A DNA stretch of 32,167 bases from an uncultured Bifidobacteriaceae bacterium (GTDB lineage Bacteria > Verrucomicrobiota > Verrucomicrobiia > Limisphaerales > UBA11358). The notes under the pieces were generated by a model. The model was not told the DNA's origin and made no database searches. It worked only from the letters and a program-made list of their open reading frames with translations. The stretch lies in assembly GCA_964538105.1 (NCBI GenBank), contig CAZIFP010000002.1, positions 1-32,167 on the forward strand, written 5' to 3'. The position numbers and the translations under genes are program-made. Shown piece by piece: positions 16,389 through 32,033 of this stretch. Each line of letters begins with the position of its first letter. Position 1 is the first letter of the stretch.

Positions 16389-16412
16389 TAGCCCCCAAAA
16401 ACTGGGGGATTT
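16389..16412 (-). promoter_or_regulatory. Box copy a: AAATCCCCCAGTTTTTGGGGGCTA (gene-sense reading)
   Basis: Intergenic, with the core edge 84 nt upstream of the PEP-CTERM gene ATG (16307). CCCCCA can pair with TGGGGG, leaving a 5-nt loop. Confidence 0.6.
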
Positions 16413-16521
16413 GAGATGTCTTAAAGCAGCGCCACATGCCTTTATGGTTGTGACGTCAAGCCAGGGCGCCGGGGGCGGTTCAATTTGGTGGGATCATGTC
16501 GTTGCCAAAAAATGAAGGTGG

Positions 16522-16609
16522 GGCGCGTCACTCCGTGCGCGCCGGCTGACAAAAAAGCATCGGAAACGCACGTTTTTCTCCATGCGCGGCGGGCAGAGGA
16601 CTGCCCGCC
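16522..16609. repeat. GC-rich hairpin (REP-like) sequences in noncoding DNA
   Basis: ggcgcg-N10-cgcgcc lies at 16522-16543 and ggcgggcag-agga-ctgcccgcc at 16588-16609 (9-bp perfect stem). Translations such as RVTPCAP and RRAEDCPPC resemble the spurious peptides produced by GC-rich palindromic repeats in related phyla. That resemblance is from memory and was not searched. Confidence 0.45.
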
Positions 16610-16676
16610 CTGCCAGCTTTGTCCCGTTGTTTGTCAACGACATGATCCCGCAATCTGGCGCTCTTGCCCGGCCGGC

Positions 16677-17311: not shown

Positions 17312-17370
17312 CAGCGATATTATGCAGGCGGGCGGTGGCGTCAACCGGTTAATACGCCTGGGGCAATCCA

Positions 17371-17600
17371 ATTTGGCTGCGCATCCTGCTGGTGGATGGC
17401 GGCTACAACGGCGAAACGTTCGCTCAATGGGTCAAAGGACTCCGCCCCACAAACTGGCCGTCGTCGTCAAACGCTCCGATGACACCTCTGGTTTCAAAGT
17501 CCTGCCGCGATCACGAAACCACTGGAACCAGCGCCGTGGCGTGGATTTACATCGCCATGATCCAGATTCAACTCCGCGACCGGCCTGATTCCTCATCCAT
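17371..17600 (+). pseudogene. Remnant of the 3' end of an IS5-family (DDE) transposase gene
   Basis: Frame A reads LLVDGGYNGETFAQWVKGL, frame B reads KLAVVVKRSDDTSGFKVLPR, and frame A resumes with RDHETTGTSAVAWIYIAMIQIQLRDR. Together these match the IS5-type C-terminus (ADGGY.GE.F..WV ... VVKR....GF.VLPRRWVVERTFAWL..RRLSKDYE..SEA.IY.AMI.LMLRRL). The match requires two frameshifts and loss of the RWVVERTFAWL block. The N-terminal two-thirds are absent. Confidence 0.55.
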
Positions 17601-17619
17601 CATGATTTTCAAACAGAGT

Positions 17620-18495
17620 CTAATCCGCCGGCGTGTGCTGCGCCAGCCAGGCCATGTCCGCATTTTGGGTATAAGTTACTCCCCCGGTTCCCGGATACTT
17701 TGTGTATGTGACCGGAACACGGAACGCGCTGGTGGTCCATTTATGAACCTCCGCATGGCCGTCGGCAAAGGAAATTCCGCAACCGCCGCCCAGATAGCTT
17801 GAGGGCACCTCGATCAGTGTTCCCGTTCCGCCCGTTGCCCGCGGATCGTCGTAAAAGATCCCGTCGTCAATGCTGTCCGGGTGCTCATTGATAAACACCC
17901 AGCTCGAACTTGGGCCTGGATTCATCAACTGGCTCATCTTCCCCGCCACGAAAAATGGACTAAGAGTTGAAAGCGAGGCCGGCGGTTTAACACCACCACC
18001 GGCCACCCCAACGGGACCGCCAACGGCCGCATCCATGGCGACGCTCCGGGCCCGATGGTGAACAATTGCGCCAAAAGTCAGGGCCCGCTGCAGGGGAGAT
18101 AGAAAGACATCCCCCGGCGAGGTGTAAATTGCAGATTGACCGGCACAATACTGGGCCAGCTTATTGGTCGCAAGGTATGCCACGTTTGTGTTGGCCGTGG
18201 CGGTGCCCCAATCCATGTGACATTGCCCGGGAATCCACGACTCAACTCCGTTGACGGCTGCCGACTGGTCGGCATTGAGCACCAACGTGTCGCTGTTGTC
18301 CCCGGCATACATATACCACGCCAGCATCAACTGCTTTTTATTGCTCATGTCCATCGTTATCTGCGCCTTCGTCTTGGCGGCGGAGAGGGCTGGCAATAAC
18401 ATGGCGGCGAGGATGGCAATGATGGCAATCACCACCAACAACTCGATCAAGGTGAAGCCGCTGGGCTTGGCATTATTCTTTGTTTGCAAATACAT
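17620..18495 (-). CDS. Prepilin-type N-terminal cleavage/methylation protein, H-X9-DG family-like (variant without the His)
   Basis: The ATG at 18495 gives [45 protein letters not shown], a class III signal with a G|FTLIELL site. The C-terminus is [18 protein letters not shown]. The ORF-track GTG at 18513 is less likely. Confidence 0.85.
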
Positions 18496-18563
18496 GGCAG
18501 ATTTCCCGTCCACACCAAAGCACGAACTCTGGCGTGGAACGGGTGGCGGTGATCATTTATTAA

Positions 18564-20468
18564 TCAAAACGGCTGGATCAACTGGAAGAAGCTAGCGCCG
18601 GCGCCCACCGGGTAATTCGTCGCGTTCTGGCCATCGGTGTTGGTCAGCTCCAGCCACGCGCCCGTGGTCAGGTTTGTCTTCGTCTGCAAATAGACGCCCG
18701 GAAGACCCAGCCAGGTGATCGGAACTATCCCGGCTGATTTTGATCCGATGGCCAGATTGCCGAACGCCGGTTCCTGAACCATGCTGCCGAATGTATCCTC
18801 CGGCAGGACATAGCTCCCTGTGGACCGGATATAACGGACGTGATTGGTGCCGCCGAGAGCCTCAATGGGAAGGCCGTTGAAGGTATATTGATAGGAAAGC
18901 TTCAACGGGTATCCCCCCGGAATCGATCCCGACGGAACCGGCACCGTGATTGTATAGACCTCGCTGCCCACTGGATTGTTTGCCATCTGGAAATTACCCA
19001 ACGGGTTGCCCGCCGGCGCGTTGGTCCACGGATCAAACGAGTAGTATCCCACCGAATTGGTAATATCCATGCCGTTAAGATAAACATTGTCCGTGCTGGG
19101 ATTGAATACTGACAAATCCGTTCCCACCGCGTTGGTCATGTTCACAGTAAAGGTCACCATGGTGGGGGCCGGCAGCACGGTGTAGGTTGATACGTCGTCG
19201 AAATAAACCGTGGGCAGGGTCAAATTGCTTCTGGTTACACTCGGCATGGCGATTTCCCGGTTTTGATTGCCGCCAAGAACTGAGGGAAAGCCAGGGTAGG
19301 TATGGGTGGGATTGTTTTCGTAGTTGCCATTGACGTAACCAAACTTGAATTGTGTCGTGGCGCCGTATCCATTGGTGATAAATATTGTCGTGCTGTAGAT
19401 GTTGGTGTTGGCGGCGTTGGGATTATTCGTGCAGGTGTTCAAGCCGGTTGTATCCCAATTGTTGAAATCCCCGCTCAAGCGAATTTGTTGACTGCCCATT
19501 TCCCCGTCCAAAACTTCACGGGTCATGTCCACCGAGAAGGTGAACTGGTTTGTTCCAATTGGCGCGAAGGGCTGGTCGCTGAAAAAGACAATCGGATACA
19601 CGGTGTTGGTGGTCAGAAAAAAGAAGCGGTTTTCGCTGTTTTGCTGGATTCCGTTAACGGGGCTAGGGGCTTCGTATACGGCAGATGGCTGGATTCTATA
19701 TTTGAATTGTCCATTCTGCCCTGCTGAACCGGCAATGGGATTGGCGAGATTTCCGACATATACATTGGAACTCACCAAACCAAACTGGTTGGTTCTCAAA
19801 ATGGTGGGATCATTGGTCAAGGTGTTGCCGCTGGGGGTGGTGCCCTGGCCGAACCCGAAATTATTGCCGCTGCCCAAGCTGCCGTCGACTTCCACCGTTT
19901 GGGTCGCGGGATTGAAAGTCCCAAGGGCGATTTGCTGCGACATGTCCACTTGGAACCAAGGGTTGGCAGTGGTAATTCCTTGGGGGGATGAACTGTTGGG
20001 CCCTTGATCGGCGAAGAACTGAAGGGGCAAAGTCAGACTCTGCTGCCCGCTGCCTGCGGGCAAAAGCGTGACCCGGTTGTCGTTGTAAGTCGCCGTTGTT
20101 TCATAGCCGCTTGCGGCAGGGGCGCTGGCGCTAATCCCAGGGGAATAAAACTTATATTGCATTTGGGCACCGTTGGTCTGAAACGTATAGTCAACCGTTA
20201 CCATATAAAGATTGGTATTGACGCCAGCGGGATTGTTGGTCAGCAGGATGCCAACGCTATTGATATTCGTATAGGTAGGAGGGGTTCCATCGGGACCAAA
20301 CGTTCGCACATAAAGCGAACTCACCCCGTTGGTGAAGTAGCCATTTTGAACCTGATACGTCATGTCACACTGAAAGGTGACAAGTGTGTCTGCGTAAACC
20401 GACCCGGCGGTGCCCAGCATAAGCCCGGCAAACAACGTGGACGAAAGAACGGCAGTTATGTTCTTCAT
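18564..20468 (-). CDS. Secreted protein with four tandem ~125-aa CBM20/CBM48-like beta-sandwich modules and a C-terminal FFQL module
   Basis: 634 aa with signal peptide MKNITAVLSSTLFAGLMLGTAGSVYA. Module heads repeat as VTFQCDMTYQV, WFQVDMSQQI, FTFSVDMTREV...RLSGDFNNWDT and VTFTVNMTNAV...VYLNG, resembling starch/glycogen-binding modules (VTF.V.M ... G.FN.W). The C-terminus is YLQTKTNLTTGAW...ASFFQLIQPF. Confidence 0.7.
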   Translation of the reverse strand: MKNITAVLSSTLFAGLMLGTAGSVYADTLVTFQCDMTYQVQNGYFTNGVSSLYVRTFGPDGTPPTYTNINSVGILLTNNPAGVNTNLYMVTVDYTFQTNGAQMQYKFYSPGISASAPAASGYETTATYNDNRVTLLPAGSGQQSLTLPLQFFADQGPNSSSPQGITTANPWFQVDMSQQIALGTFNPATQTVEVDGSLGSGNNFGFGQGTTPSGNTLTNDPTILRTNQFGLVSSNVYVGNLANPIAGSAGQNGQFKYRIQPSAVYEAPSPVNGIQQNSENRFFFLTTNTVYPIVFFSDQPFAPIGTNQFTFSVDMTREVLDGEMGSQQIRLSGDFNNWDTTGLNTCTNNPNAANTNIYSTTIFITNGYGATTQFKFGYVNGNYENNPTHTYPGFPSVLGGNQNREIAMPSVTRSNLTLPTVYFDDVSTYTVLPAPTMVTFTVNMTNAVGTDLSVFNPSTDNVYLNGMDITNSVGYYSFDPWTNAPAGNPLGNFQMANNPVGSEVYTITVPVPSGSIPGGYPLKLSYQYTFNGLPIEALGGTNHVRYIRSTGSYVLPEDTFGSMVQEPAFGNLAIGSKSAGIVPITWLGLPGVYLQTKTNLTTGAWLELTNTDGQNATNYPVGAGASFFQLIQPF

Positions 20469-20546
20469 AATTAAATATATTGGTTATTGGTTTGGGTATA
20501 GGTGTTCTTACTTGCGTTACAATAAGCCCGAACCTTGTGTCCCGCC

Positions 20547-20569
20547 TAGCCCCCAAAAACTGGGGATTT
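20547..20569 (-). promoter_or_regulatory. Box copy b: AAATCCCCAGTTTTTGGGGGCTA
   Basis: Intergenic. It lies 18 nt after the GH13 stop (20584), and its core edge is 81 nt upstream of the ATG at 20468. Confidence 0.6.
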
Positions 20570-20583
20570 CGTGGAATCTGAAT

Positions 20584-22677
20584 TTAGTTTGGCGGCGATG
20601 CTTTGCCAGTGCCGACGCAGCGGAAACGTGACTCGAACCCGGCGTAAAATGTTTTTCGGGAATCGGCGGCGCGCGCCGTGTCGCCGAGATGCACGGTGAC
20701 CAGCGTGAGCGGCTGGAAGCCGGGGCTTTCCGGTGTGAACGTCATCTCGTCGCCTGCGGCCGTCCAGGTAAACGCGCCTTTCACCGGCGGCTCTGTTGAG
20801 AACGCACGTTCGACGCTGGCATTGTTCATAGGCTGACTGAAATGAATCACCATCGGCGCGGTTGGCAGAATTTCGCTGGCGTCGTGTGCGGGTGAAATGG
20901 CGGTTACCACCGGATCGAGCGGACGGATTTCGGATTTGGCGACGAAAATTTTTGCTGACGTGCCCGGCACGACAATGGGCGGTGTTTGCCCGCCGGCCTG
21001 CGCGGTAACAGTTTCCTTTTCGTCAAGCACGTTGACCAATTTTGTTCCCGCCGGGTATGTCGCCGGACATGCCGGCAGGATTTGGTTCGTCTCCGCCGTG
21101 TTGAAAACCACGAACGCTTCCTGCGGGCCGAGCCGCCGCGTGTAGGCGAACAGGCCGGGACCGGTGGCGTCGCTCCACAGATTCGATTGAACGCCGGTTT
21201 GCAGCTCCGGATACAACCGCCGGAAATTATTCAGCTTGGCGACGAGCTGAAAAAGCGGATGCGTCATGTTGAAGTTGTCGCCGAGCGACGGTCCCCACTC
21301 GAATTGTCCGGCGAACATGTCTTCCCGATCGAATGGATCCTTCTTTCCATTGAAGGCCTGCTCCGTGCCGTAATACAAACATGGAATGCCGCGCGCGGTG
21401 TAGAGAAAAACCAGCGCCACCTTGAGCCGTTCCAGATTATTACTCGCGCCTTTGTCGCTCAAAAAGCGGGGCTGGTCATGATTGTCGAGAAATGTCACCA
21501 GCCGCGTTTGCGCCGACGGATCATAATCGCGCGCCACCGCCGAGTAGTGATCTTGAAGCTGTTTTGTATTGCCGGTCGCGGTGGCAAACACGCTGTTGAT
21601 TTTGAAATACAGCGGATAGTCCACGGTCGAATCCAGCTTGAACGGGCCGCCGTCTTTTGCGCCGACATAGGAACTGCACTTGGCGTCGGCGTGATCCAGC
21701 ACTTCGCCGAACATAAAAAAATCCGGCCTGCCGTGCGCCGCCGCGAACGCACGGACGGCCGGACACCATTCCTGCCAGAATCCCATCTCGACATGTTTGA
21801 CAGTGTCAATGCGGAAGCCGTCGAAGCCCGCTTGCTCGATCCAATACTCGTAAATTTTCTCCATCTGTGTCCGCACATAGGGCGTTTCGGTGCGAAAATC
21901 ATCGAGACCGCTCAGTTCGCCCAGCTCTACCTGGGTTGGATCATGGTAATCATGGATGAAGCCGTTGTTGTGAAACAGATTTGTGAGCGACGGATTGGTG
22001 GCATTGAGATCAAATGGCGGCGGATATTGTTTGGCGGGATCGCGGAACCGCAAATGGTATCCATCCGGCGGATATTTGAAAGCCGGGTAGCCCGGATCGG
22101 CGCTGTCCACGAGGTTGCCGCCGTGATTCACCACGATGTCGTCAATGACCAGGATGCCGCGAGCGTGAGCCGCTTTAATCATGTGCTGCAAATCCGCCAG
22201 CGTGCCCCAGTGCGGATCCACCTTGTAAAAATCCACCCCGGCGTAACCGTGAAATTCGCCGCGCTCATTCAACACGACCGGCGAAATCCAGATGGCCGTC
22301 GCGCCGAGCGATTTGATGTAATCCAGTTTTTCCTCGATGCCCTTGAAATCGCCGCCGTGAACGGACGTTCCCCGGTGGCCGGCCGGATCGTAATTGCCGT
22401 CGGCATTGTCGTTTGACGGGTCGCCGTCGTAAAAGCGGTCGGTGATGATTTGATAAATGCTTTGCGCCTGCCAGAAACTGTTGGAAACCGATTGGGCTTC
22501 TGTTTGTGCCGCGAGAAAAACAGACGCCGCGATGATGAACGAAGCACCAATCTTCAAACTCGCTTTGCGCGGGTTTGGGAGCTTTGTTCTTGAAGTTTCT
22601 CTGGATGTTGGAGCCTGGTGTTTGGAACTTTTGCCTTCCAATTCTTTCCGCTGAAAACTTCGGAATGGCCCGATCAT
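20584..22677 (-). CDS. GH13 alpha-amylase-family glycosidase with C-terminal Ig-like domain
   Basis: GH13 regions are GGDFKGIEEKLDYIKSLGATAIWISPV, VVNHGG, GFDGFRIDTVKHV, FGEVLD and FLDNHDQPRF. The C-terminus resembles an SbsA/Big_5 Ig domain (PVVTAISPAHDASEI...). The ATG at 22677 overlaps the upstream stop (ATGA). A 40-aa basic leader precedes the signal peptide, and an alternative TTG at 22557 would start directly at MKIGASFIIAASVFLAAQTEAQS. Confidence 0.9.
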   Translation of the reverse strand: MIGPFRSFQRKELEGKSSKHQAPTSRETSRTKLPNPRKASLKIGASFIIAASVFLAAQTEAQSVSNSFWQAQSIYQIITDRFYDGDPSNDNADGNYDPAGHRGTSVHGGDFKGIEEKLDYIKSLGATAIWISPVVLNERGEFHGYAGVDFYKVDPHWGTLADLQHMIKAAHARGILVIDDIVVNHGGNLVDSADPGYPAFKYPPDGYHLRFRDPAKQYPPPFDLNATNPSLTNLFHNNGFIHDYHDPTQVELGELSGLDDFRTETPYVRTQMEKIYEYWIEQAGFDGFRIDTVKHVEMGFWQEWCPAVRAFAAAHGRPDFFMFGEVLDHADAKCSSYVGAKDGGPFKLDSTVDYPLYFKINSVFATATGNTKQLQDHYSAVARDYDPSAQTRLVTFLDNHDQPRFLSDKGASNNLERLKVALVFLYTARGIPCLYYGTEQAFNGKKDPFDREDMFAGQFEWGPSLGDNFNMTHPLFQLVAKLNNFRRLYPELQTGVQSNLWSDATGPGLFAYTRRLGPQEAFVVFNTAETNQILPACPATYPAGTKLVNVLDEKETVTAQAGGQTPPIVVPGTSAKIFVAKSEIRPLDPVVTAISPAHDASEILPTAPMVIHFSQPMNNASVERAFSTEPPVKGAFTWTAAGDEMTFTPESPGFQPLTLVTVHLGDTARAADSRKTFYAGFESRFRCVGTGKASPPN

Positions 22678-24941
22678 TTCGTCTGCGTTTCCAATATCAC
22701 CGTCATTTTACGGACGGGATCGCCGGACGATTTGTCAACCGGCGTGTTCGTGTCAACGTTGATCACCACCGTGAAATGACGGGTGACCGGATCGTATTGG
22801 ACATCGTCATCTTCTCCGAGCAGCACCGTTGCCTTCGGCGCCGACGGCGCGTAGCCGTGCAGCACGACGGATTTTTCATTGGCCGCCAGCACGACGCCGA
22901 CCGTCAACTTGCCGGCTTCATCGTGGAGCGATTCAATCCGTTGTCTGCCCGTGCCGACAAATTTGTCCTTGTCGCCGAGAAAAGCGATGCCACTTTTGCC
23001 GACCGGCGCCACGACATAAAACGCGCTGGCGTCCTTGCCCAGCGGCGCGGAGAATTTGGCGCGGGCATCCAGCCGTTGAGACGCGCCGGAAAAATAATCA
23101 TAAACGTAAGCCGGCCCGTTCACACCGAGTTCGCCGAGCGTGAAATGGACTTTGTCATCCGGCGTCTTGGGCCGGTTGAAAGCGAAGACATATTCGGTTT
23201 TGATTCCGTCACGGTCCGTGTAGGTGCTGGCAGTCATCGGCACCGCTTTTTTCTCCGCGTCGGCGACGTAGCTGCGATCCAGCGGCACGATGGACGCATC
23301 GGGTTTGACAATCACCCCGTCGGCGCGGACAGCCTGAAAAAGATTGGCCTTGTTTTCGGCGCCCATCGCATCACCGGTGCCAACCGGCCCTGCGGAAAGC
23401 GTGGACAGCAGGACGTTGTTGATTTCGCCGCTCATGTAAACATCCGCCCACGGCCAGATGCCCATCGAGGAGGCCAGACGTGAGGTGTAGAGAAAATCAT
23501 TCCACTTGTTGGTATTGAACCGGTCGCCGCTGGTGCGGATGCTCGTCAAATTTTCGTAGCGGCTGCCCTGCAGAAAATAGCATGGATACGGCATGCAATA
23601 TTGCATCGTGATGCCCTGTTCCTGGCAGGCACGCGCCATATTGTCGAGAAAGGCCGCACCAGTATCCACGTTGCTGCTGAACGCCGGGGAATAGGTGTAG
23701 ATGCGGTCCAGCCAGTCCTGCTCGTAGGTGGCAATGCCGGAAGCCTTCATGTAATCCGCAATGCTGTCCCACCATTTCGGATCCACGGCGGCGACGCCGG
23801 AAATTTCATAGCGTTGATGATATGGGCTGGCCGGGTCAATCCAGCGGTTGTGGGTGATGAGCGGCAGACCGACTGTCTTTTGAAAGGCATCCAGTCCGTT
23901 CGGGAAAAGATCGGTATGCGCCCTGTATTCCAGCAGGCCGCCGTAGCGGTTCCATTCGCCCGCCGGCAGCCTGTTCGATTTTTTCTCCTTGCCCGGCTTG
24001 CCATCGGCATCCGTGGTCGTCTTGTAATACCACCACGAATCCAGTTGCAGGTAGCGGATGGGAATCTGCTCCTGGCGATAGCGCTCCACCAGCGACTGGA
24101 GCGTGCCGGCGTAGCCTTTGTCAAAATCGTAATTGTAATAATAGTTTGCGCCGTTGTCGGTCCAGTAACCCAGATATTTCAGCACCGCATCCGCGTCATC
24201 GGCCGGCCGCTTCGAACCTTGCAAATCAACCAATGCGCGGCCCCACAAATCCCAGGTTTTGTTGATTCCCTTGCCGAACGCCACGATCGTTTGCTGCGTG
24301 AAACCCGCCGGCAAATTCCGCAAATTTGGATTGAAGCCGCTGGCCACCTCCTTCCGGCCATCCCCAATCATGCTGGCGACCATGAAATGCGACGCGGGTG
24401 AAATGACGAAGGCGTCGACGTCGTCATCGAACAGCAGCCACGGCGTCGAGATTTCGGTGGTGCTGAAATCCGGCGGCGCAAATTCATGATGACCGTAGCT
24501 GAAAATGTGCAACGACTCCGGCAGCTTGGTGAACGCCGGGAAAGCGGCGGGCGGCGTTTCCTCCGCCGCGCCACACGTCTGCGAAAACAGCGCCAGCGCC
24601 TTTTCATTGTAAATCCGGATCTGGCCGCTCATCAGCTTTTGTCCATCCTGCCACTCAAAGGCAATCTGCTGATAGTCGCCAATCACATCACGACCTTGAC
24701 TGGCTGCCACATTTTTGAGGGACTGATTCACGCTGCCGCTGAAATTCCACGCCGGCTGTTTGGCGGTGAGTTGATAGCTGCCAGTGCTTGCGTCCAGTCG
24801 CAGGGACACACCGCTGGCGGAACTGATGACCGCCGCTTCGCAGCGATTCGCCGCCAACATCAGCGCAAAGGCAGCGAAGAAAGGTTGGAAAATAGACTTC
24901 CAAACCCGGCGACGACAATCCTGTGAAGATGAATTCATCAT
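22674..24941 (-). CDS. Secreted putative glycoside hydrolase, (beta/alpha)8 + beta-sandwich, clan GH-D-like, family unassigned
   Basis: 755 aa with ATG at 24941 and a signal peptide ending LAANRCEA. KYLGYWTDNGANYYYNY and IRYLQLDSWWYYK recall the FGWC.WDAFY / IDDGW strands of GH27/GH36/raffinose-synthase-type enzymes. The C-terminal Greek-key-like tail reads PAYVYDYFSG...FYVVAPV. I cannot place it in a named family by eye. Confidence 0.45.
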   Translation of the reverse strand: MMNSSSQDCRRRVWKSIFQPFFAAFALMLAANRCEAAVISSASGVSLRLDASTGSYQLTAKQPAWNFSGSVNQSLKNVAASQGRDVIGDYQQIAFEWQDGQKLMSGQIRIYNEKALALFSQTCGAAEETPPAAFPAFTKLPESLHIFSYGHHEFAPPDFSTTEISTPWLLFDDDVDAFVISPASHFMVASMIGDGRKEVASGFNPNLRNLPAGFTQQTIVAFGKGINKTWDLWGRALVDLQGSKRPADDADAVLKYLGYWTDNGANYYYNYDFDKGYAGTLQSLVERYRQEQIPIRYLQLDSWWYYKTTTDADGKPGKEKKSNRLPAGEWNRYGGLLEYRAHTDLFPNGLDAFQKTVGLPLITHNRWIDPASPYHQRYEISGVAAVDPKWWDSIADYMKASGIATYEQDWLDRIYTYSPAFSSNVDTGAAFLDNMARACQEQGITMQYCMPYPCYFLQGSRYENLTSIRTSGDRFNTNKWNDFLYTSRLASSMGIWPWADVYMSGEINNVLLSTLSAGPVGTGDAMGAENKANLFQAVRADGVIVKPDASIVPLDRSYVADAEKKAVPMTASTYTDRDGIKTEYVFAFNRPKTPDDKVHFTLGELGVNGPAYVYDYFSGASQRLDARAKFSAPLGKDASAFYVVAPVGKSGIAFLGDKDKFVGTGRQRIESLHDEAGKLTVGVVLAANEKSVVLHGYAPSAPKATVLLGEDDDVQYDPVTRHFTVVINVDTNTPVDKSSGDPVRKMTVILETQTK

Positions 24942-24967
24942 TAATGATTATGCGCAGTGGATGACGT

Positions 24968-24993
24968 CTGGCCAGCCCCAAAAAACTGGGGTA
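24968..24993 (-). promoter_or_regulatory. Box copy c: TACCCCAGTTTTTTGGGGCTGGCCAG
   Basis: It sits in the 82-bp gap between the prepilin-like stop (25024) and the glycosidase ATG (24941). The core edge is 34 nt from the ATG. Confidence 0.6.
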
Positions 24994-25023
24994 ATTGCAC
25001 GACATAGGTAAGATTCAATTGCT

Positions 25024-25890
25024 TTATTGCTGGCTGCTGGTCCGTTGTTGCAGCCAAGTCATGTCATCGGGCGAATTCTTGCCGAGGTCCGGACAGGGAT
25101 TCACCCTTGCGACGGGTGCTTTGGTGTTTACGTCCAGCCATTGCTTGATTTCCGAATGGCCATCGGCGAAAGACAATCCGGCGGCCCCCCCATGAGTCGA
25201 AGCGGGCAGTTCGACCCAGTTGGCAGCGGAGCCTCCCTGCATGGGCACCTTAAAATAATCGTCATCAATGCTGTCCGGGCATTCGCAGATCAACACCCAC
25301 GTCTTCGCAGGGCCGGGATTGGCACAGTCGCTGGTTTTCAAAAATCTGCGCCAGCCGGGATTATCTTTCCCATTGAAATTCATTGTGTCGCCCACGAAAC
25401 CATTCATCGCGTAGCTCCGCACCCGCGGACCCCACCGGCCGGGATAAATGTCCGCCGGACACTTGAAAATTCCAACGTTCTTGACCACATACGGACCGAT
25501 CTCGCCACCGGTCAAATAAATGGTATTTGTATTTTCGGTGCTGGGATATTTTGGGGGCAGATCCCAACTCATATTGCCGGTGACCCAGGCATTGAAGTTG
25601 ATGATGTTTCCGGTGTTATCGGGAAATGCCTGATGGTTGTCATCGGCATACATTTCGATCGCCAACTGCACCTGCTTGAGATTGTTCATGCAGTATATTG
25701 TCTGCGCCTTTTGCTTTGCCTTGCTCAAAACCGGGAGCAACATCGCCGCCAGAATGGCGATGATGGCGATGACAACGAGCAGTTCGATGAGTGTGAACGC
25801 CGCCCTCGTCGTTCCGCAGCCTGGCCGGGAAACCCGTTGGGGCGATTCCCCGGGGAAAATGCTCCGATGTTTCTTCTGATGTAGGTTCAC
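25024..25890 (-). CDS. Prepilin-type N-terminal cleavage/methylation protein with C-terminal H-X9-DG motif
   Basis: GTG start at 25890. The N-terminal part reads ...[45 protein letters not shown]. The C-terminus [23 protein letters not shown] fits H-X9-DG exactly (H, 9 residues, DG). Confidence 0.85.
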
Positions 25891-25920
25891 TAACTCTAAT
25901 TTATGCGAGAAGTTTCCAAA

Positions 25921-25944
25921 CTGACCAGCCCCAAAAACCTGTGG
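25921..25944 (-). promoter_or_regulatory. Box copy d (degenerate): CCACAGGTTTTTGGGGCTGGTCAG
   Basis: It sits in the 81-bp gap between the response-regulator stop (25972) and the prepilin-like start (25890). The core edge is 38 nt from the start. The left arm is degenerate (CCACAG for CCCCAG). Confidence 0.5.
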
Positions 25945-25971
25945 TAGTGGAAACGGCTGCCGGCGCGAACC

Positions 25972-26607
25972 TCACATGCTTTTCCGGCGGCCGAGAAATT
26001 TCAAAGCTGCCTGGGTGCGCGAACGGACGTGCAGCTTGGTGTAAATGTGCCGCAGATGCCAGGTCACGGTCTCGATGCTGATGGAAAGCTTGTCCGCAAT
26101 TTCCTTGTTTGCGCAGCCTTGGGACAGCAGTTCCAGCACCTCCTGTTCGCGCCGGGAAAGATTCTGATCCTCCGCCGGCGCCGGCGCCGGCTCGCGAAAC
26201 ACGCCGAGGACCTTGCGCGCAATCTCGCTCGACATCGGCACGCCGCCGGCGTGGACTTCCCGTATGGCCTGCAAAATCTGCTCCGGCGCCACGCGTTTGA
26301 GAATATAGCCGCTTGCCCCGGCACGCAGGGAGTTGAAAACTTTTTCGGTGTCGCCATAGACGGTGATCATCACCACCTGCGCCGATGGCAGCAGTTCCTT
26401 GATGCAGGCGGTGCATTCGATGCCCGAGCGGTCAGGCAGGTTGATATCCATGAGAATAACCTGCGGTGCGGCCTTCGGAAGCGTGCGCAGCGCCTCCTCG
26501 GTGTTCTTGCAGGCCGCGACGCACGAAAATTCCGACGACGACTTCAGCAGCCATTCCAAACTGCGGCGGATACCCGCGTCATCCTCAACTATCGCCACGG
26601 TGATCAT
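25972..26607 (-). CDS. NarL/LuxR-family response regulator (REC + LuxR HTH)
   Basis: 211 aa. The receiver reads MITVAIVEDDAGIRRSL...VILMDINLPDRSGIE. The output domain LSRREQEVLELLSQGCANKEIADKLSISIETVTWHLRHIYTKL is a GerE/LuxR HTH. Confidence 0.9.
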   Translation of the reverse strand: MITVAIVEDDAGIRRSLEWLLKSSSEFSCVAACKNTEEALRTLPKAAPQVILMDINLPDRSGIECTACIKELLPSAQVVMITVYGDTEKVFNSLRAGASGYILKRVAPEQILQAIREVHAGGVPMSSEIARKVLGVFREPAPAPAEDQNLSRREQEVLELLSQGCANKEIADKLSISIETVTWHLRHIYTKLHVRSRTQAALKFLGRRKSM

Positions 26608-26688
26608 TTTCTTTTTTTACGGAACAATTTTAACAAGGCAATTGATTGCAGAAAAAATATGGGACAGGTTTTTCGGGTTGTTATGCCG

Positions 26689-29600
26689 TCACTCATACTG
26701 CCTGGTCCGCCGCGCGGCAAGCGGCAAAGACAAGCTGACGGAAACTCCGCCGGCCGGCCGGTTGACAATTTCGCACCGGCCGCCGATCTGGGCCATTCGC
26801 TGGCGCAAGTTGATCAGACCGTCCGCGTCTTCCTTTACCGTCGGTGACAGGCCGCGTCCATTGTCTTCAACGCCGATGAACAAACGGCTTTTTTCCTCGA
26901 CGGAAATTTTGACGCGGACTTCGGTTGCGCCGGAATGTCTTACCACGTTGGTCAAGGCTTCCTCGAAAGCCAGAAAAAGATTGTGCCGTTGTTCCGAGTT
27001 CAAGGGCTGATCGGGTTCCGTTTCCTGCATTTCCAAACGGCAGCGGATGGCCGTCGGCTCCAGAAAACCCTGCGCGTAGCGACAGAGATAACCGCCGAGC
27101 GAATTCACCGAGTCGTCCCGCGGGTTGACCGCCCACACAATTTCATCCAGCGCCATGACCAGATCGCGGCTGCGCTGGACAATTCGGTCCAAAGCCTCCT
27201 GCTTGCGGGTCGGGAGCCGCGCCGGATCCTGAAGCAGCCCGCCAAGCAGCCCAATCTCGGTCAGGCCCGCGCCGAGGTCGTCGTGCAAATCCCGGGCGAT
27301 GCGCGACCGCTCGCGCTCCAGCTCATGCTGGCGTTCCAATCGTTCCAGCCGGCGATGCATCCGCCGACGCATGGTAATCACAACTGTGAAGGACAACCCC
27401 GCCATCACCAACAAACCTGCGCCGCCGCGGAACCAGGCCGTCTGATAGAAAAACGGATTCACCTTTACTGAAAGCAGCGCGCTGTCGTCGCTCCAGACGG
27501 AATCGCTGTTGCAAGCCATGACGTGAAAAACATACCGGCCCGGCGGGACATGGCGGTAGATGGCTTTTCTTTCCGCGCCAGCATCGTTCCATCCGCTTTC
27601 CAGTCCATCAAGGCGGTATTTGAACCGGACATCCGCCGCCGAACCGAGGCTCAATCCGGCGTAATAGAATTCGAGATCCCCGCGACCGGGACCGACCTTG
27701 ATTTCCGGCGTGGCGGCGTGGCCGTCTTCAATGGTTTCATGAGCCGTCAGGACTGCGCCGACGTTCACCGGCCCAACTCGTTTGTCATCGGCCCACATAT
27801 CTTCCAGCACCACCGTCGGCGGCGAGGGATTGATATGAACTGCTGCCGGATTCACCGTCGCCACGCTGTTTGCCATGGCAAAAAACAAGGAGCCGTCCCG
27901 CCCGCGCCAGCAGTTCGGCTGGTAGACAATCGCGCTGCCAATCGTCTGCAAACCGTCCGACCGCCCATAGACACTCACCGGCAGTTCGTCCAATTTGCCG
28001 CGTTCGAATTGTGCCAGTGCGGCGGCGGGGATGCGGGCGATGCCGGCGCGCGTTCCCAGCCACAGATTGCCAGCGGCGTCGCCCAAAATCTGAACGATGC
28101 TGTCTGAAGGCAGCCCGTTCTTCATCGTATATCGGAAAAATTTGCCGTTGCTCCAGTGCAACAAACCGCCTTGCTCCGTGCCCGCCCACAAGCTGCCGTC
28201 TGGAGCCGCCCACAACGCCCAGATTCGTCCCAGCGAATTCCGATCCGGCGGCGATAGCGGGACAAATTGTTTGCCGTCCCAGCGCATGAGCAGTCCGTCC
28301 AGTGTTCCCGCCCAAACCGTGCCGTCTGCCGCCTCCGCCAGCGCCGTCGGGTGACCGCCTGTGCTTTGCGAGGCGTATTCAAAGGAAAGATTTCCATTCG
28401 TGACGCTGATGATGGAAGAAAGTGTTCCGACCCAGAGGCGGCCATCGCGGCATGGCAACAGCAGACGCGGATAACTCTTCAGTTGCGTCTCCGTGGCGAT
28501 TGGCTGCAACTGTCCGGCTTCTGACATCAACAGGCCGATGCCCTGCGCGCCAATCCAAACCCGTCCGCGCGCGTCGGCCACAACGCAACTGTCTTGCGTG
28601 CGTCCGGATCCTTGCAAAACGATGTTCGTGCAGACGCCGTTCTCATAACGGCCTACGATGCCGCTGTGCGTGCCAATCCACACGGCACCGTGAGCGTCTT
28701 CGCACACGGTGTTGATCAGGCTGTCACCCAACCCTTGTTCCTTCCCGATGATCCCGAATAATCGCCTCCGCAACTGCACCAAGCCGCCCCGTTCGTAACC
28801 CGTCCAGATGTTTCCGTCGTGATCCTCATAGGCAAAGTGAACCACATTGCTGGGCAATCCATCCCGCGTGGTCAGGCGCTGGAAGGCGCCGTCCGCGGCA
28901 ACGTGGATCAATCCCAGATCACCGGCGCCGGCCCACAAACCGCCTTCGCTGTCGCCCTGCACAAAGTGCAACGAAGTCCTTCCGCCGAGTTCGCGGTTCC
29001 AGCCATCGGATTCGGACAGCCATTGCCGTCCGGCGCAACGCCGCATCCGGCCGTTGGCTTCCACCCAGATAGTGCCGCCGCCGGAGGGAACAATTCTCTT
29101 CACGTCCAGCACGGCCTCGCCATTGGTCGGTGTCATCACTTCAAAATGATTCGTCCGCCACACGGCCAGGGTCTGGTCCGTGCCAATCCAAATTCGTCCC
29201 TGCGCGTCGGCGGCCAGCACTTTGAGGATCTGATCTTCCAGCCCTGCCGTCAGTGCGAGGGTTTTGGTTTCCTGGCCGCTCCAGATGCCAATTTTGTTTT
29301 CGCTTTGCAAATACCAAATCCGGCCTTCGGCATCAGCGCATTGCTGACCCTGCGACGAAACATCCGGCGGCGTCACCGTCTGCCAGTTCCATTGCTCGCG
29401 CGTTTTTTGGCCCGCCAGCAATCTCCCGTCGCCATAGATAAAAATGACCGTGCCCGGCGCCGACCACAACAAGCGGGCGGGCCGGTTGGTGCTGTTGAAC
29501 ACCGAGCGGAAACCTTGTTTGTCCCACGTGGTCAAGCCGCCATCAACCATGCTGATCCAAAGCGTGCCTGCCTGGTCCACCATGAGCCGGGGCACGCCCC

Positions 29601-29883
29601 ATTTCTGTGAAAATACCGGCGTGTTCGCGGAGTTGTATTTGGCGAAGCGCGTGCCATCGAAACGCAGCACGCTGCCAAAGAGCGTGCCGACCCATAAATA
29701 GCCTTCCGGGGTTTGCGCGACATCCGTGACCGAGCTTTCGGTCAAGCCTTCATCCGCACCCCAGAGTTTGACAACATAATCCTGGCCTGCGGAATCGTCT
29801 ACATTTGCACACACAAATGGTGGCAGTGCCGGGCTGAGGAACAACCCCAGCCAAAAGAGGAGAGTTCTCGCGGCTGGTTGCAT
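26689..29883 (-). CDS. Sensor histidine kinase with periplasmic two-component-regulator propeller repeats + Y_Y_Y domain, TM helix, HisKA_3 and HATPase_c
   Basis: The ATG at 29883 gives MQPAARTLLFWLGLFLSPALPPFVCA; the ORF-track start at 29901 is TTG. The N-terminal ~750 aa carry many repeats of the type W.GT..GL (LWVGTLFG, IWIGTDQ, VWIGTHSG, LWAGTEQGGL, LWLGTRAGI). FKYRLDGLESGW is Y_Y_Y-like. The TM segment is GLLVMAGLSFTVVI, the H-box is ERSRIARDLHDDLGAGL, and the ATP-binding part is NVVRHSGA...VEDNGRGL. Confidence 0.9.
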   Translation of the reverse strand: MQPAARTLLFWLGLFLSPALPPFVCANVDDSAGQDYVVKLWGADEGLTESSVTDVAQTPEGYLWVGTLFGSVLRFDGTRFAKYNSANTPVFSQKWGVPRLMVDQAGTLWISMVDGGLTTWDKQGFRSVFNSTNRPARLLWSAPGTVIFIYGDGRLLAGQKTREQWNWQTVTPPDVSSQGQQCADAEGRIWYLQSENKIGIWSGQETKTLALTAGLEDQILKVLAADAQGRIWIGTDQTLAVWRTNHFEVMTPTNGEAVLDVKRIVPSGGGTIWVEANGRMRRCAGRQWLSESDGWNRELGGRTSLHFVQGDSEGGLWAGAGDLGLIHVAADGAFQRLTTRDGLPSNVVHFAYEDHDGNIWTGYERGGLVQLRRRLFGIIGKEQGLGDSLINTVCEDAHGAVWIGTHSGIVGRYENGVCTNIVLQGSGRTQDSCVVADARGRVWIGAQGIGLLMSEAGQLQPIATETQLKSYPRLLLPCRDGRLWVGTLSSIISVTNGNLSFEYASQSTGGHPTALAEAADGTVWAGTLDGLLMRWDGKQFVPLSPPDRNSLGRIWALWAAPDGSLWAGTEQGGLLHWSNGKFFRYTMKNGLPSDSIVQILGDAAGNLWLGTRAGIARIPAAALAQFERGKLDELPVSVYGRSDGLQTIGSAIVYQPNCWRGRDGSLFFAMANSVATVNPAAVHINPSPPTVVLEDMWADDKRVGPVNVGAVLTAHETIEDGHAATPEIKVGPGRGDLEFYYAGLSLGSAADVRFKYRLDGLESGWNDAGAERKAIYRHVPPGRYVFHVMACNSDSVWSDDSALLSVKVNPFFYQTAWFRGGAGLLVMAGLSFTVVITMRRRMHRRLERLERQHELERERSRIARDLHDDLGAGLTEIGLLGGLLQDPARLPTRKQEALDRIVQRSRDLVMALDEIVWAVNPRDDSVNSLGGYLCRYAQGFLEPTAIRCRLEMQETEPDQPLNSEQRHNLFLAFEEALTNVVRHSGATEVRVKISVEEKSRLFIGVEDNGRGLSPTVKEDADGLINLRQRMAQIGGRCEIVNRPAGGVSVSLSLPLAARRTRQYE

Positions 29884-29934
29884 GGCGCGAGTATGAAACA
29901 AACGACAGTTTCATCGCCACAACAAAATCAGATG

Positions 29935-29958
29935 CCCCAGTTTTTGGGGGCTGGTCAG
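29935..29958 (+). promoter_or_regulatory. Box copy e: CCCCAGTTTTTGGGGGCTGGTCAG
   Basis: It lies in the 110-bp divergent region between the kinase start (29883, minus) and the GH127-like ATG (29994, plus). It is in sense orientation for the plus-strand gene, with the core edge 43 nt from the ATG. A TATATT hexamer follows at 29972-29977. Confidence 0.6.
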
Positions 29959-29993: not shown

Positions 29994-32033
29994 ATGAGAT
30001 TCAATCGAAGCTTCATCACCGCTGCTCTAATATTTGGACTGGCCGGCAACAGCTTGGCACTGCTTCAACCCGCGTTGGCTGCGTCAGTGCCGGGACAATT
30101 CAAGGTCAGGTATTACGGGCAATTTTCGGAATTGCCGGTCGGCTCGGTTCAGCCGCGCGGCTGGATTCAAGAATGGCTGAAGCGGCAGGCGCAGGGTTTG
30201 ACCGGGCATCCTGAAAACATGTCCTACCCTTACGACACCTGCATGTATGCCGGCGTCATCCCGCCGCCGCCGGTCAAAGACAAATATTGGAAGGACTGGT
30301 GGCCATACGAACAGTCAGCTTACTATGTGGACGCCACCACGCGCTTGAGCTGGCTCATCAACGATGATGCCATCGGCAAAAGGCGCGACGCCAATCTCAA
30401 TTACATTCTGGACCACTCGACCGGCACCAACTACGGTGGCTCACACTGGTGCTGGCCCAACGCGGTGGTGGGGCGCGCGTTGATGGCACAATTTTCAGCG
30501 ACCGGAGATCCGCGCGTGGCGACAACGATGAAAAACTGGCTGTTGACGAGTGCCGGTGAGATTGAGCAAGGCGGACGCAGCGGCGCAAATTTTGAAGAGG
30601 CGTTTTATCTATACGGCCTGACCGGAGACCCGCGCCTGCTGGAACTTTGCCGCAAGGTGTATGGCGACTATTTGAACGACACCAATTCATTCTGCACGAC
30701 GGCAAAAATTCAAATCGAGACTCCATTCCACGAACACGGCGTCACGGCGGCAGAAGAATTAAAATGCCTGCCGCTGATGTATTCCTACACTGGCAAAACG
30801 GAAGCGCTGCGACTGGCAAAACGGGCTTATGAAAAAGTTTTGGACAACAGCCTCATGCCCGACGGCGGCATTGTCAGCTCGGAGCACTTGGGGCCGGCGG
30901 CGTTTTATTCGGTCCATGAAAGCTGCGACATCACCGACTGGTCATGGAGTCTGGGTTATATGTTCATGGCGACAGGCGAACCACGCTATGCTGATTTGAT
31001 TGAACGCACCACGTTCAACGCGCTGCCCGGCGCGGTGACGAAAGATTTCAAGCAGCTTCAATATTTTTCCGCCGTGAACCAGATGGTGATTGCCGCCACC
31101 AACAGCCACACGCCGCACTGGCCCACGCGCATGACTTATCGGGCGGCGCACGACACGGAATGCTGCGCCGGCAACATCAACCGCGCCATGCCGAATTACG
31201 TCATCCGCATGTGGATGCGCCCACAGGACGGCGGTCTCGCTGCGGTTTATTACGGGCCGAGCGAACTCACCACCACCGTCGCCGGGAAAAAAATTACCGT
31301 CACGGAAGAAACGGATTATCCTTTTCGCGACTCCATTTCGTTTCTGATAAAAACCGCCGTGCCGGTCAAATTCAACTTCCAGTTCCGCATCCCCGAATGG
31401 TGCAGCAACGCGACGATTCAGGTGAACGGAAACGACCTGCGCAAAACGCCCAAAGCGGGAGCGTTTGCCTCGGTAAAAAAAGAATTCCGCGACGGCGACG
31501 TCGTGAATTTGAAACTACCCATGACCGTGGGAGTTGAAGATTGGTTTCACGGCCAAAGCGTCTGTTTCGTGCGCGGACCGCTGGTCTATTCCCTCCAGAT
31601 TGACGAAAAGCGCGTGGCGCACAGCAGTGATCCCGACAACATCAGAGCTTTTATGGCTGGCCACGACATCCAGGGATTTCCCGAAGTTGAGTTCTTGCCT
31701 CAAAGCGACTGGCGTTACGGTTTCAATGCGGCACAGAAAAATAATTTGTCGAAAATCCAGGTTGTCGAATCGGGCATGACGGACAACCCATTCCTCGAAA
31801 ATCAAACTCCAGTGCGACTCGAAGTTCCAGTTTGTCAGCTAACCGATTGGGGGTTGCCAACGGATAAAGACAGAAGTTTTTTGAACGAGCCGTCAGGCCT
31901 GCCGGTGACCAATGATGAGCCGGCCGAAGACCAGCAAACGACCAAATTATTTGTTCCCTACGGCGCTACGCATTTACGTTTGACCACGATTCCGGTGGTT
32001 CCGGCCAGGCACGCTGATAATTCTCAAAATTAA
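29994..32033 (+). CDS. GH127/GH146-like (DUF1680) beta-L-arabinofuranosidase-family protein
   Basis: 679 aa with signal peptide MRFNRSFITAALIFGLAGNSLALLQPALA. VHESCDITDW (E-x-C) and HDTECCAGNINRAMPNY (Cys-Cys pair) match the Zn/cysteine catalytic signature known from GH127 HypBA1-type enzymes. Confidence 0.7.
   Translation: MRFNRSFITAALIFGLAGNSLALLQPALAASVPGQFKVRYYGQFSELPVGSVQPRGWIQEWLKRQAQGLTGHPENMSYPYDTCMYAGVIPPPPVKDKYWKDWWPYEQSAYYVDATTRLSWLINDDAIGKRRDANLNYILDHSTGTNYGGSHWCWPNAVVGRALMAQFSATGDPRVATTMKNWLLTSAGEIEQGGRSGANFEEAFYLYGLTGDPRLLELCRKVYGDYLNDTNSFCTTAKIQIETPFHEHGVTAAEELKCLPLMYSYTGKTEALRLAKRAYEKVLDNSLMPDGGIVSSEHLGPAAFYSVHESCDITDWSWSLGYMFMATGEPRYADLIERTTFNALPGAVTKDFKQLQYFSAVNQMVIAATNSHTPHWPTRMTYRAAHDTECCAGNINRAMPNYVIRMWMRPQDGGLAAVYYGPSELTTTVAGKKITVTEETDYPFRDSISFLIKTAVPVKFNFQFRIPEWCSNATIQVNGNDLRKTPKAGAFASVKKEFRDGDVVNLKLPMTVGVEDWFHGQSVCFVRGPLVYSLQIDEKRVAHSSDPDNIRAFMAGHDIQGFPEVEFLPQSDWRYGFNAAQKNNLSKIQVVESGMTDNPFLENQTPVRLEVPVCQLTDWGLPTDKDRSFLNEPSGLPVTNDEPAEDQQTTKLFVPYGATHLRLTTIPVVPARHADNSQN

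Follow-up and report, generated by a model that had tools for sequence, protein, structure and literature searches.

Evidence tying prepilin-like genes to glycan genes in a candidate SusC/D-less polysaccharide regulon of the Verrucomicrobiota

We analyzed a stretch of 32,167 nucleotides (hereafter the window) of contig CAZIFP010000002.1, from an uncultured bacterium placed by GTDB within the Limisphaerales of the Verrucomicrobiota (assembly GCA_964538105.1). Seven co-directional genes on its minus strand (17620-29901) encode a sensor histidine kinase, a NarL/LuxR-type response regulator, a prepilin-like protein (pilA), a predicted glycosidase of 755 aa (p755), a GH13 enzyme, a predicted binding protein of 634 aa (p634) and a second prepilin-like protein (pilB). 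An initial annotation made from the sequence alone had described this string, and our coordinates agree with it; it had also proposed that the prepilin-like proteins act as adaptors for display, capture or secretion where the Bacteroidota use SusC/D-type proteins. Of that model, the association itself stands: a box specific to this type of locus, a gene order kept in about 20 loci, the co-variation of pilin subtypes with their partners in rearranged loci and RNA contigs running from p634 into pilB support a functional link between the pilin-like and the glycan genes over chance adjacency. We further propose, with a probability of roughly 45%, that the locus is a SusC/D-less polysaccharide regulon of a Pedosphaera-like bacterium from peat or soil, and that its pilin-like proteins are dedicated partners of the exported proteins, working through a shared filament. 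The strongest argument for such a partnership is p634 itself: this predicted binding protein, non-catalytic and anchorless, is the partner to which two pilin subtypes are most tightly linked.

The box, an 18-nt sequence (CCCCAGTTTTTGGGGGCT), is present in five copies in the window against 0.04 expected by chance. Copies precede pilA, p755, p634 and a PEP-CTERM gene located beyond pilB, and another lies on the opposite strand ahead of a divergent GH127-like gene; the string had rightly been described as punctuated by the box, but the marked set is larger than the seven genes and reaches these two additional ones (Table 1). The core of the box is a 5-5-5 inverted repeat, CCCCA-GTTTT-TGGGG (CCCCA-N5-TGGGG), and the extended consensus over 38 sites from related loci reads box-gGcCAG-N~15-cATAATt. 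We infer that gGcCAG is a weak -35 element abutting the box and cATAATt a -10-like element, which would place the centre of the repeat ~44 nt upstream of the transcription starts. The pilin and p755 genes have their start codon 6-9 nt past cATAATt with no Shine-Dalgarno sequence (window 24941-24991 and 25890-25944; 38 sites), suggesting that their mRNAs are leaderless or nearly so; p634 and the PEP-CTERM gene have leaders of ~45-60 nt.

Among 84 loci with p755 homologues, the box is confined to those with an orthologous kinase-regulator pair, always at the same promoters. About 60 other loci yielded three matches with 3 mismatches, about the chance expectation, and the box was not found in nine paralogous alpha-glucan loci (L085-L093) having paralogous kinases; in the two of these that were checked for an analogous operator, L086 and L088, nothing conspicuous appeared among the repeats. 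Within most of the orthologous loci listed, the box lies 33-37 nt 5' of the pilin gene. Its position ahead of p755 is kept in L003, L005, L008, L010 and L011, ahead of p634 in L003, L005, L008, L011 and L049, and ahead of the PEP-CTERM gene in L008, L011 and L049, while L006 has a box 5' of its GH28a orthologue. Minus-strand boxes of the orthologous loci stand 5' of GH127 or of a large GH28-like gene, and in loci with no box between the pilin gene and p755, it is the pilin gene that comes first after the box. A variant found at two promoters of L016 (L016:9790-9815 and L016:12340-12365), CCACA...TGTGG, has both arms altered and retains the symmetry. The box fits an operator of the NarL-type regulator encoded in the locus, and its locus specificity, its absence from the paralogous loci and the symmetric L016 variant make it a candidate for one specific to that regulator. 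A general promoter motif of the phylum was rejected, since the box is absent from the ~60 related loci, and an RNA hairpin or terminator is unlikely because both the -10-like element and the RNA 5' ends lie downstream of the box.

Some 20 Verrucomicrobiia loci, with p755 identities of 58-96%, retain the order kinase-regulator-pilin-p755, and a pilin gene of the H-X9-DG family lies directly 5' of p755 in ~20 of the 84 loci. Contig CAWACS010000026.1 is 96% identical. These four genes constitute the conserved core, and the downstream content varies: the arrangement of the window is GH13-p634-pilB-PEP-CTERM-GH28, and others are p634 with no GH13, a large GH13 ahead of another GH13, and GH28 directly. 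The closest paralogues of pilA (60-66% identity) belong to other loci, and all six sampled have a GH13 gene no more than 7 kb away; in five of the six, the locus also contains a Y_Y_Y kinase, a GerE regulator and a p634-like gene immediately followed by a second pilin gene, in gene orders that differ. Among three distant homologues of p634 (39-40% identity), two have a pilin gene immediately 3' of them, and the third has a pilA-type gene 3.8 kb away.

Clustering of 41 pilin globular domains at >=50% identity defined subtypes that keep different company. Twelve of 13 pilA-type pilins are in p634-containing loci, in at least seven gene orders, whereas none of the ten type-2 pilins, which are encoded directly 5' of p755, is in a locus with p634 (nominal Fisher p = 1e-5, uncorrected for shared ancestry). 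As for the pilB-type genes, nine of ten start 7-106 nt after a p634-like gene.

Metagenomes from soil, peat, bog and wetland contain sequences of the locus, and peat and wetland metatranscriptomes contain part of it. The latter consisted of eight peat or wetland RNA runs analyzed as assembled contigs, in which missing coverage is weak evidence. The best-covered gene of the locus is p634 (depth ~20 in X24); the junction between p634 and pilB is spanned by contigs from X26 (18497-18698, mismatch-free) and X32 (18482-18672), and X24 has coverage of pilB. In two runs the p634 contigs stop at 20501/20502, with adapter beyond and nothing upstream, that is, ~12 nt 3' of the start that the box predicts. 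Depths up to 97-210 at 25731-25801 (also 18398-18461) come from contigs that match only the helix-coding stretch common to many paralogues, indicating that peat and wetland communities are rich in mRNAs from many H-X9-DG paralogues.

Both pilin-like proteins start with the class III signal peptide of the superfamily formed by type IV pilins and the pseudopilins of the type II secretion system (T2SS), RAA/FTLIELLVV... in pilA and PSG/FTLIELLVV... in pilB (the slash marks the cleavage site), with Glu at +5 in each. Pfam N_methyl matches pilA at 1.7e-6 and pilB at 7.4e-9, TIGR02532 also matches, and their alpha1 helix matches type IV pilin, GspG, PilA and geopilin structures in the PDB. The SBP_bac_10/DUF1559 profile (PF07596) matches pilA at 1.6e-5 (25.6 bits against a cutoff of 23.3) over profile positions 2-43 of 268 only, and has no match in pilB, for which Pfam gives N_methyl alone. 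Both had been annotated as H-X9-DG proteins, and pilA carries the motif; in the alignment, pilB has Leu in place of the His and keeps DGH, and is thus of an L-X9-DG type. The TIGR04294 model gave no match to the pilins in NCBIfam, even at E = 10 on the C-terminal halves; homologues 90% identical to pilA are named "prepilin-type processing-associated H-X9-DG protein" by JGI. In the alpha1 region, 20 residues do not vary among subtypes that are otherwise only 37-46% identical to pilA, which argues for one common processing and assembly machine, and the invariants of the globular domain (D84, W102, W109, R156, R158, D206, D210, D243, H245, W251 and W279) are common to three subtypes.

The H-X9-DG family is large, with at least 7999 matches listed, and planctomycete genomes have 68-91 N_methyl/DUF1559 paralogues each (PMC10632474, PMC8567305). 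In Tuwongella, 91 N_methyl+SBP_bac_10 proteins fractionate with membranes, and their genes, to which no function is assigned, are often flanked by genes for secreted proteins (PMC8567305). A literature search on H-X9-DG, TIGR04294, PF07596 and on pseudopilins together with carbohydrate-active enzymes (CAZymes) returned almost nothing on function, and we found no paper stating a subtype-partner rule or a shared operator. With the pseudopilins GspG-K and the type IV pilins, pilA and pilB share the class III signal peptide, the (G/A)/FTLIE sequence and the alpha1 helix; they differ from them in a ~220-aa head unlike any solved one and in their genes, which lie outside gsp/pil operons, dispersed singly by cargo genes, with tens to hundreds of paralogues per genome. 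Within the N_methyl + DUF1559 (SBP_bac_10)/H-X9-DG family of Planctomycetes and Verrucomicrobia, to which pilA probably belongs, the subtypes described here are set apart in having p634 or p755 as particular partners and in their association with a defined cis-element.

The AlphaFold2 (AF2) model of p634 is all-beta (pLDDT, the predicted local distance difference test, 79). A MAFFT alignment delimited four modules, whose pairwise identities are 22-37%, and a fifth domain of ~65 aa at the C-terminus; self-BLAST found no internal repeats, and the modules emerge only in that alignment and in the family consensus. Whole-chain Foldseek returned mostly generic strings of Ig domains, the informative matches being a carbohydrate-binding module (CBM) of family CBM20 (2Z0B, probability 1.0, TMt 0.63) and the C-terminal, starch-binding domains of cyclodextrin glucanotransferases. 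The window protein has no CBM match in Pfam (E <= 0.1), and a PDB search with its single sequence gave nothing useful; among 28 family members, AMPK1_CBM (CBM48) matches 19, CBM_48 12, CBM53 nine and CBM_20 six. The description of p634 as four starch-binding-like modules holds in that four CBM20/48-like modules are present, but the tryptophan of G-x-F-N-x-W, kept in modules 3 and 4, is lost in modules 1 and 2 of this lineage, so that a four-fold valency is not assured, and the C-terminal domain comes in addition. From the models, p634 would be a multivalent alpha-glucan-binding protein.

A C-terminal domain of ~55 aa is common to p634 (18564-18770) and to GH28b, a GH28 protein of 921 aa (11282-11450). 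It follows the pattern ...W/LQW..G..LQT.T......L.......FF(Q/R)L.Q, has no Pfam match and may be a sorting or attachment domain; the tandem GH28 copy at 13894-15429 ends just before it.

In the mechanism that we propose, a periplasmic oligosaccharide sensor of the type found in the hybrid two-component systems (HTCS) of Bacteroides, here joined to a classical kinase, would phosphorylate the NarL-type regulator, which most likely binds the CCCCA-N5-TGGGG inverted repeat as a dimer. Five promoters would be activated, namely those of pilA, p755-GH13, p634-pilB, the PEP-CTERM gene (probably together with GH28) and GH127. The putative retaining alpha-glycosidase p755, the GH13 enzyme and the alpha-glucan binder p634 would be exported via Sec, while prepilin peptidase would cleave the pilin-like proteins, whose near-invariant alpha1 helix (Glu +5) would dock in a single type-IV-filament machine common to all of them, be it a T2SS pseudopilus or a pilus. 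The variable pilin heads would bind their cognate cargo, pilB and pilA pairing with p634 and, in sister loci, the type-2 pilin with p755, and the cargo would either be led through the outer membrane or be held at the surface of the cell to capture glycans, so that starch-binding modules and enzymes would come to lie at the outer membrane or beyond it. The binding of the regulator to the box, the processing and assembly of the pilins, the binding of cargo and the direction of transport are steps that we infer.

Several observations weigh against this reading. The case for binding of the regulator to the box is made from sequence, and a different factor might read the box as a common promoter element. 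The loci share ancestry, which inflates the co-occurrence counts, six "bystander" pilins have mixed neighbors of which only about half are CAZyme-like, and the pairing is not one-to-one, as p755 occurs in window-type loci without a type-2 pilin; GH28b bears the C-terminal domain of p634 yet has no adjacent pilin. The ~220-aa globular domain of the pilins has no PDB match, a profile of 29 pilins hitting the alpha1 helix only, and genes for T2SS, the type IV pilus or prepilin peptidase were not found in the window. On the RNA side, GH13 is uncovered at 20730-21875 in all eight runs, the rest of the gene having one short contig of the 5' end each in X26 (22530-22725) and X28 (22459-22653), and the pilA-specific region is uncovered as well; the co-expression of pilin and glycan genes anticipated by the initial annotation is therefore seen for p634 and pilB but not for pilA with the glycosidases.

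The pilin heads might instead be glycan receptors themselves, carried on a retractile type-IV-like fibre that would reel chains through a secretin into the periplasm as an analogue of SusC/D; this, the initial annotation in its strongest reading, we consider unlikely. It would agree with the Planctomycetes in which dextran binds pili-like fibres and accumulates in the periplasm (PMC5394234), and with MUL2, a type-IV-like pilus locus linked to the acquisition of mucin and fucoidan by Akkermansiaceae (PMC13174399). Invariant Asp, Trp and Arg residues of the globular domain do resemble residues of sugar- or calcium-binding sites, and the pilin subtype follows the content of the locus; however, these polar and aromatic residues are common to three subtypes from differing loci and thus cannot alone encode glycan specificity. 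Moreover, p634, the tightest partner of the pilA and pilB types, already bears putative binding modules, making a pilin-borne site unnecessary, and the locus has no linked gene for a retraction ATPase or a secretin.

According to another view, to which we also attach little probability, the pilin-like proteins are not filament subunits at all but periplasmic proteins that, once cleaved, remain anchored in the inner membrane through the alpha1 helix and serve as binding proteins, enzyme chaperones or co-sensors of the kinase, in the way that ChvE presents its ligand to VirA and LuxP to LuxQ. The position of the pilin gene, directly after the kinase-regulator pair in all ~16 orthologous loci and near a Y_Y_Y kinase in most paralogous ones, speaks for a co-sensor, but a box of its own makes the gene look like a target of regulation and not like a part of the sensor unit, and pilB is tied to p634, not to the kinase. 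The label "SBP_bac_10" given by Pfam to DUF1559 would suit a binding protein, although the match is limited to positions 2-43 of the 268 in the profile, just past the helix; likewise, an anchored protein would be expected to fractionate with membranes, as those of Tuwongella do (PMC8567305), but a plain membrane anchor needs neither Glu +5 nor 20 invariant helix residues. Finally, that adjacency is meaningless, some of the ~100 H-X9-DG paralogues per genome having fallen by chance in CAZyme clusters and been co-inherited, is highly improbable: the family is indeed hugely expanded (including 67 copies in Verruconatronum alginivorum), the bystander pilins have heterogeneous neighbors and many of the counted loci are orthologous and hence not independent, but a given subtype is found again and again with its usual partner across seven or more gene orders, the locus-specific box stands at a constant distance ahead of the pilin genes, the p634-pilB pair persists down to the most distant p634 homologues mentioned above and p634 transcripts read through into pilB.

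The closest functional analogue of the locus is the Bacteroides Sus system, of which it is not a member, since the SusC/D pair is absent: no SusC, SusD or TonB-receptor domain was found in the open reading frames (ORFs) of the window scanned with Pfam, a set that included every gene assigned in the locus but not the mutS, epimerase and SIS-like ORFs at 5358-9814, and among the scanned ORFs there is no adjacent SusC/SusD pair such as defines the Sus-like polysaccharide utilization loci of Bacteroidota. Like SusRABCDEFG of B. thetaiotaomicron, a cluster induced by its substrate, it combines GH13 enzymes (SusA, SusG) with a glycosidase of clan-D-like fold (SusB of GH97, compare p755) and with non-catalytic, multi-module starch-binding proteins (SusE and SusF, compare p634). 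It differs in that p634 has no lipid anchor, in its regulation by a two-component system instead of SusR, in its two type-IV-pilin-like genes, which Sus lacks, and in having a GH127-like gene and probably GH28 genes in its box-marked set.

Two verrucomicrobial systems bring pilins and glycans together. In V. alginivorum, a pulG-like pseudopilin with 67 paralogues is encoded in the cluster induced by alginate, and of the three other proteins over-expressed on this substrate one is a pseudopilin as well (PMC13274419). The likeness is that of a pseudopilin gene of a large paralogous family inside a CAZyme cluster; the differences are the substrate (alginate), the order (Opitutales), the enzymes, and the authors' proposal of a general T2SS export, with neither a CBM-protein partner nor a shared operator (PMC13274419). 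The MUL2 locus of Akkermansia (Amuc_1099-1102), compared here by its description, is likewise verrucomicrobial, with a type-IV-like pilin at its centre and a link to the acquisition of glycans, but it is a single conserved locus with PilM and an archaeal-type pilin, in contrast to the dispersed H-X9-DG pilins encoded next to their cargo (PMC13174399).

Verrucomicrobiota and Planctomycetota are major degraders of polysaccharides in soils, peat, oceans and the gut that have no SusC/D; N_methyl/DUF1559/H-X9-DG proteins are the largest paralogous family of these phyla, with tens to ~100 copies per genome. A wider proposal, which we regard as doubtful, is that the H-X9-DG pilins of the Planctomycetes-Verrucomicrobia-Chlamydiae bacteria are modular adaptors, each subtype linking a particular CAZyme or binding protein, exported by Sec, to a common type-IV-filament machine; together they would form glycan-capture fibres, in this locus decorated with starch-binding modules, in place of SusC/D/E/F. 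If true, it would explain the "selfish" polysaccharide uptake of Sus-less phyla, with p634-pilB-pilA as the first defined cargo-adaptor set and with a defined operator; it would also give a function to thousands of genes labelled hypothetical or as generic prepilin-domain proteins and describe a strategy of glycan acquisition distinct from Sus. The locus offers entry points to glycan acquisition in bacteria that have no SusC/D, namely the trio of two pilins and a CBM protein, the 18-nt candidate operator with its regulator and a large, uncurated GH36-like family.

Table 1. Coordinates of the genes and box copies of the locus in the window (+, forward strand; -, reverse strand).
Feature	Coordinates	Strand	Domains, matches or position
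GH28 gene pair, tandem	13894-15429 and 11282-14047	-	Glyco_hydro_28 3.7e-25, 3.3e-23
PEP-CTERM (exosortase-sorted) surface protein	15435-16307	-	PEP-CTERM 2.9e-6 (Pfam), TIGR02595
Box copy 4, exact	16390-16407	-	82 nt 5' of PEP-CTERM gene
pilB, second prepilin-like protein	17620-18513	-	N_methyl; 51 nt 3' of p634
p634, 634 aa, predicted Sec-exported, non-catalytic, four CBM20/48-like modules and C-terminal domain	18564-20468	-	
Box copy 3, exact	20548-20565	-	79 nt 5' of p634 start codon
GH13 alpha-amylase-family enzyme with C-terminal Big_5	20584-22677	-	Pfam, PDB matches
p755, 755 aa, predicted Sec-exported glycosidase of GH36-like (clan GH-D) fold	22674-24941	-	AF2, Foldseek
Box copy 2, CCCCAGTTTTTTGGGGCT	24974-24991	-	32 nt 5' of p755 start codon
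pilA, prepilin-like protein, H-X9-DG	25024-25890	-	N_methyl, weak SBP_bac_10/DUF1559
Box copy 1, CCACAGGTTTTTGGGGCT	25927-25944	-	36 nt 5' of pilA start codon
NarL/LuxR-type response regulator	25972-26607	-	Receiver and GerE helix-turn-helix (Pfam)
Sensor histidine kinase	26689-29901 (TTG) or 29883 (ATG)	-	Reg_prop, Y_Y_Y, HisKA_3, HATPase_c (Pfam)
Box copy 5, exact	29935-29952	+	41 nt 5' of divergent GH127-like gene, adjoining kinase start
GH127-like (beta-L-arabinofuranosidase family) gene, divergent	29994-32033	+	Glyco_hydro127M 1.9e-21, GH127 catalytic domain 1.6e-16

The GH13 gene and the CBM20/48-like modules point to an alpha-glucan substrate. Nevertheless, the box-marked set also includes the GH127-like and PEP-CTERM genes and probably GH28, thus describing a composite locus and not a pure starch system, and the conserved core of sensor, regulator, pilin and p755 may respond to something other than starch. 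The two GH28 genes, which sit 3' of the PEP-CTERM gene and whose listed limits overlap because the starts given are maximal, probably belong to the set; GH28 also follows the locus in L003, L008, L011 and L049. The GH127-like protein has in addition a partial match to aceric acid hydrolase in NCBIfam, far under the cutoff.

No match to p755 was obtained in Pfam or NCBIfam (E <= 0.01) or in a PDB search with the single sequence. Its AF2 model, built from a 40-sequence alignment (pLDDT 93.8), displays an N-terminal beta-sandwich, a (beta/alpha)8 barrel and C-terminal beta-sandwiches, and the best Foldseek match is the Arabidopsis GH36 alkaline alpha-galactosidase RS6 (7EXF/7EXG; E 7e-28, TM 0.64-0.67), followed by the GH36-like FpGalNase, GH97 (including SusB), GH31 and GH27; a profile of the p755 family finds 7EXF among PDB sequences at E 4e-4. 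When aligned to 7EXF, YEQD409W of p755 corresponds to KVD383 and RTSGD473 to RASDD447, D383 being the residue mutated in the D383A crystal entries and D447 the one which we take to be the acid/base; D409 and D473 are each at least 90% conserved across the 40 family members. The domain layout and both catalytic Asp are those of the clan GH-D fold, whereas by sequence p755 matches no curated GH36, GH27, GH31 or GH97 model of Pfam or NCBIfam, the resemblance being one of fold at 13-14% identity. The label of unclassified GH-D-like glycosidase given earlier was therefore correct, and the model predicts a retaining alpha-glycosidase. With the GH36 alkaline alpha-galactosidase/raffinose-synthase group, p755 shares its top fold match and the aligned catalytic Asp; unlike that group it is bacterial and Sec-exported, and it has no Raffinose_syn or Melibiase match in Pfam.

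The p755 family comprises more than 3166 close homologues, all labelled hypothetical, in 2361 clusters at 50% identity, from Verrucomicrobiia, Planctomycetota, Armatimonadota, Acidobacteriota and Steroidobacteraceae. The neighbors of distant homologues in other phyla gave no clue to the substrate; they include a GH31, a major facilitator superfamily transporter, a PEP-CTERM/dockerin protein and unrelated enzymes. The start codon of the GH13 gene overlaps the stop codon of p755, confirming the ATGA overlap noted before. Its product matches Alpha-amylase (PF00128, 9.3e-65) and Big_5 (1.3e-8) in Pfam and alpha-amylases as best PDB hits (E 5.7e-80 to 6e-67), and its translation contains the GH13 regions I-IV (DDIVVNH, GFRIDTVKH, GEVLD and FLDNHD), as expected for a member of the family.

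The kinase, likely starting at the ATG at 29883, is composed of a signal or transmembrane segment, periplasmic Reg_prop beta-propellers (6.6e-31) and Y_Y_Y (2e-14), a second transmembrane segment, HisKA_3 and HATPase_c. Bacteroides HTCS sensor domains of the Reg_prop/Y_Y_Y type detect glycan breakdown products, and the periplasmic part of the kinase matches the one of BT4663 in the PDB (4A2L, E 4.4e-41), as well as 3V9F (E 3.6e-37), while its cytoplasmic part resembles DesK-type kinases. The regulator has Response_reg (1.4e-25) and GerE (2.9e-20) domains, its best NCBIfam match being NarL, under the cutoff of that model. Although the sensor domain is homologous to that of the HTCS (BT4663; 4A2L/4A2M), the system is not a hybrid one: the kinase polypeptide stops after HATPase_c, its core is of the DesK/NarX type (HisKA_3), and the receiver and GerE domains are encoded by a separate NarL/GerE gene, in place of a fused receiver and AraC domain.

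Further features were seen around the locus and in related ones. Large TPR proteins (~670-760 aa), of which the window has none, are encoded in the paralogous alpha-glucan loci L085, L086, L088, L091, L092 and L093; L085, L088 and L092 also have a carbamoyltransferase gene with a small partner gene (DUF5989 in L085 and L088, SxtJ-like in L092), likewise missing in the window. Outside the box-marked set, the window encodes a 959-aa secreted protein (28-2907) with two Pect-lyase_RHGA_epim regions and a SMP-30/gluconolactonase-like C-terminus, and an adjoining secreted protein of 230 aa (2926-3618) with no Pfam match. Rfam and tRNA scans of the window gave no match.

The gap between pilB and the PEP-CTERM gene measures 1.3 kb in the window, where pilB is single-copy. 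In L008 (16246-18240) and L011 (16345-18329) pilB is tandem-duplicated, with two pilB-type genes after p634; a comparable gap of 1257 nt in L008 contains the second copy, L011 has 230 nt after its second copy, and L049 has a gap of 121 nt. Region 16730-17610 contains a truncated LysR-type gene, with HTH_1 and the first 91 of 209 positions of LysR_substrate. Its end, 17383-17610, was considered by eye as the frameshifted C-terminal part of an IS5-type transposase, a candidate set aside for want of Pfam support. RNA contigs match only 17463-17509 in this region and then diverge on both sides, as expected for a repeated element. Closer to the PEP-CTERM gene, an element of ~165 nt (16485-16650) with GC-rich internal hairpins, which has no Rfam or tRNA match, lies between 23-nt inverted repeats (GGGATCATGTCGTTG...CAACGACATGATCCC) that are 91% complementary, and it could be a repeat resembling miniature inverted-repeat transposable elements or a small structured RNA. 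Metatranscriptome contigs cover it at depths of 10-43, and some of them skip 42-46 nt (16544 to 16587/16590).

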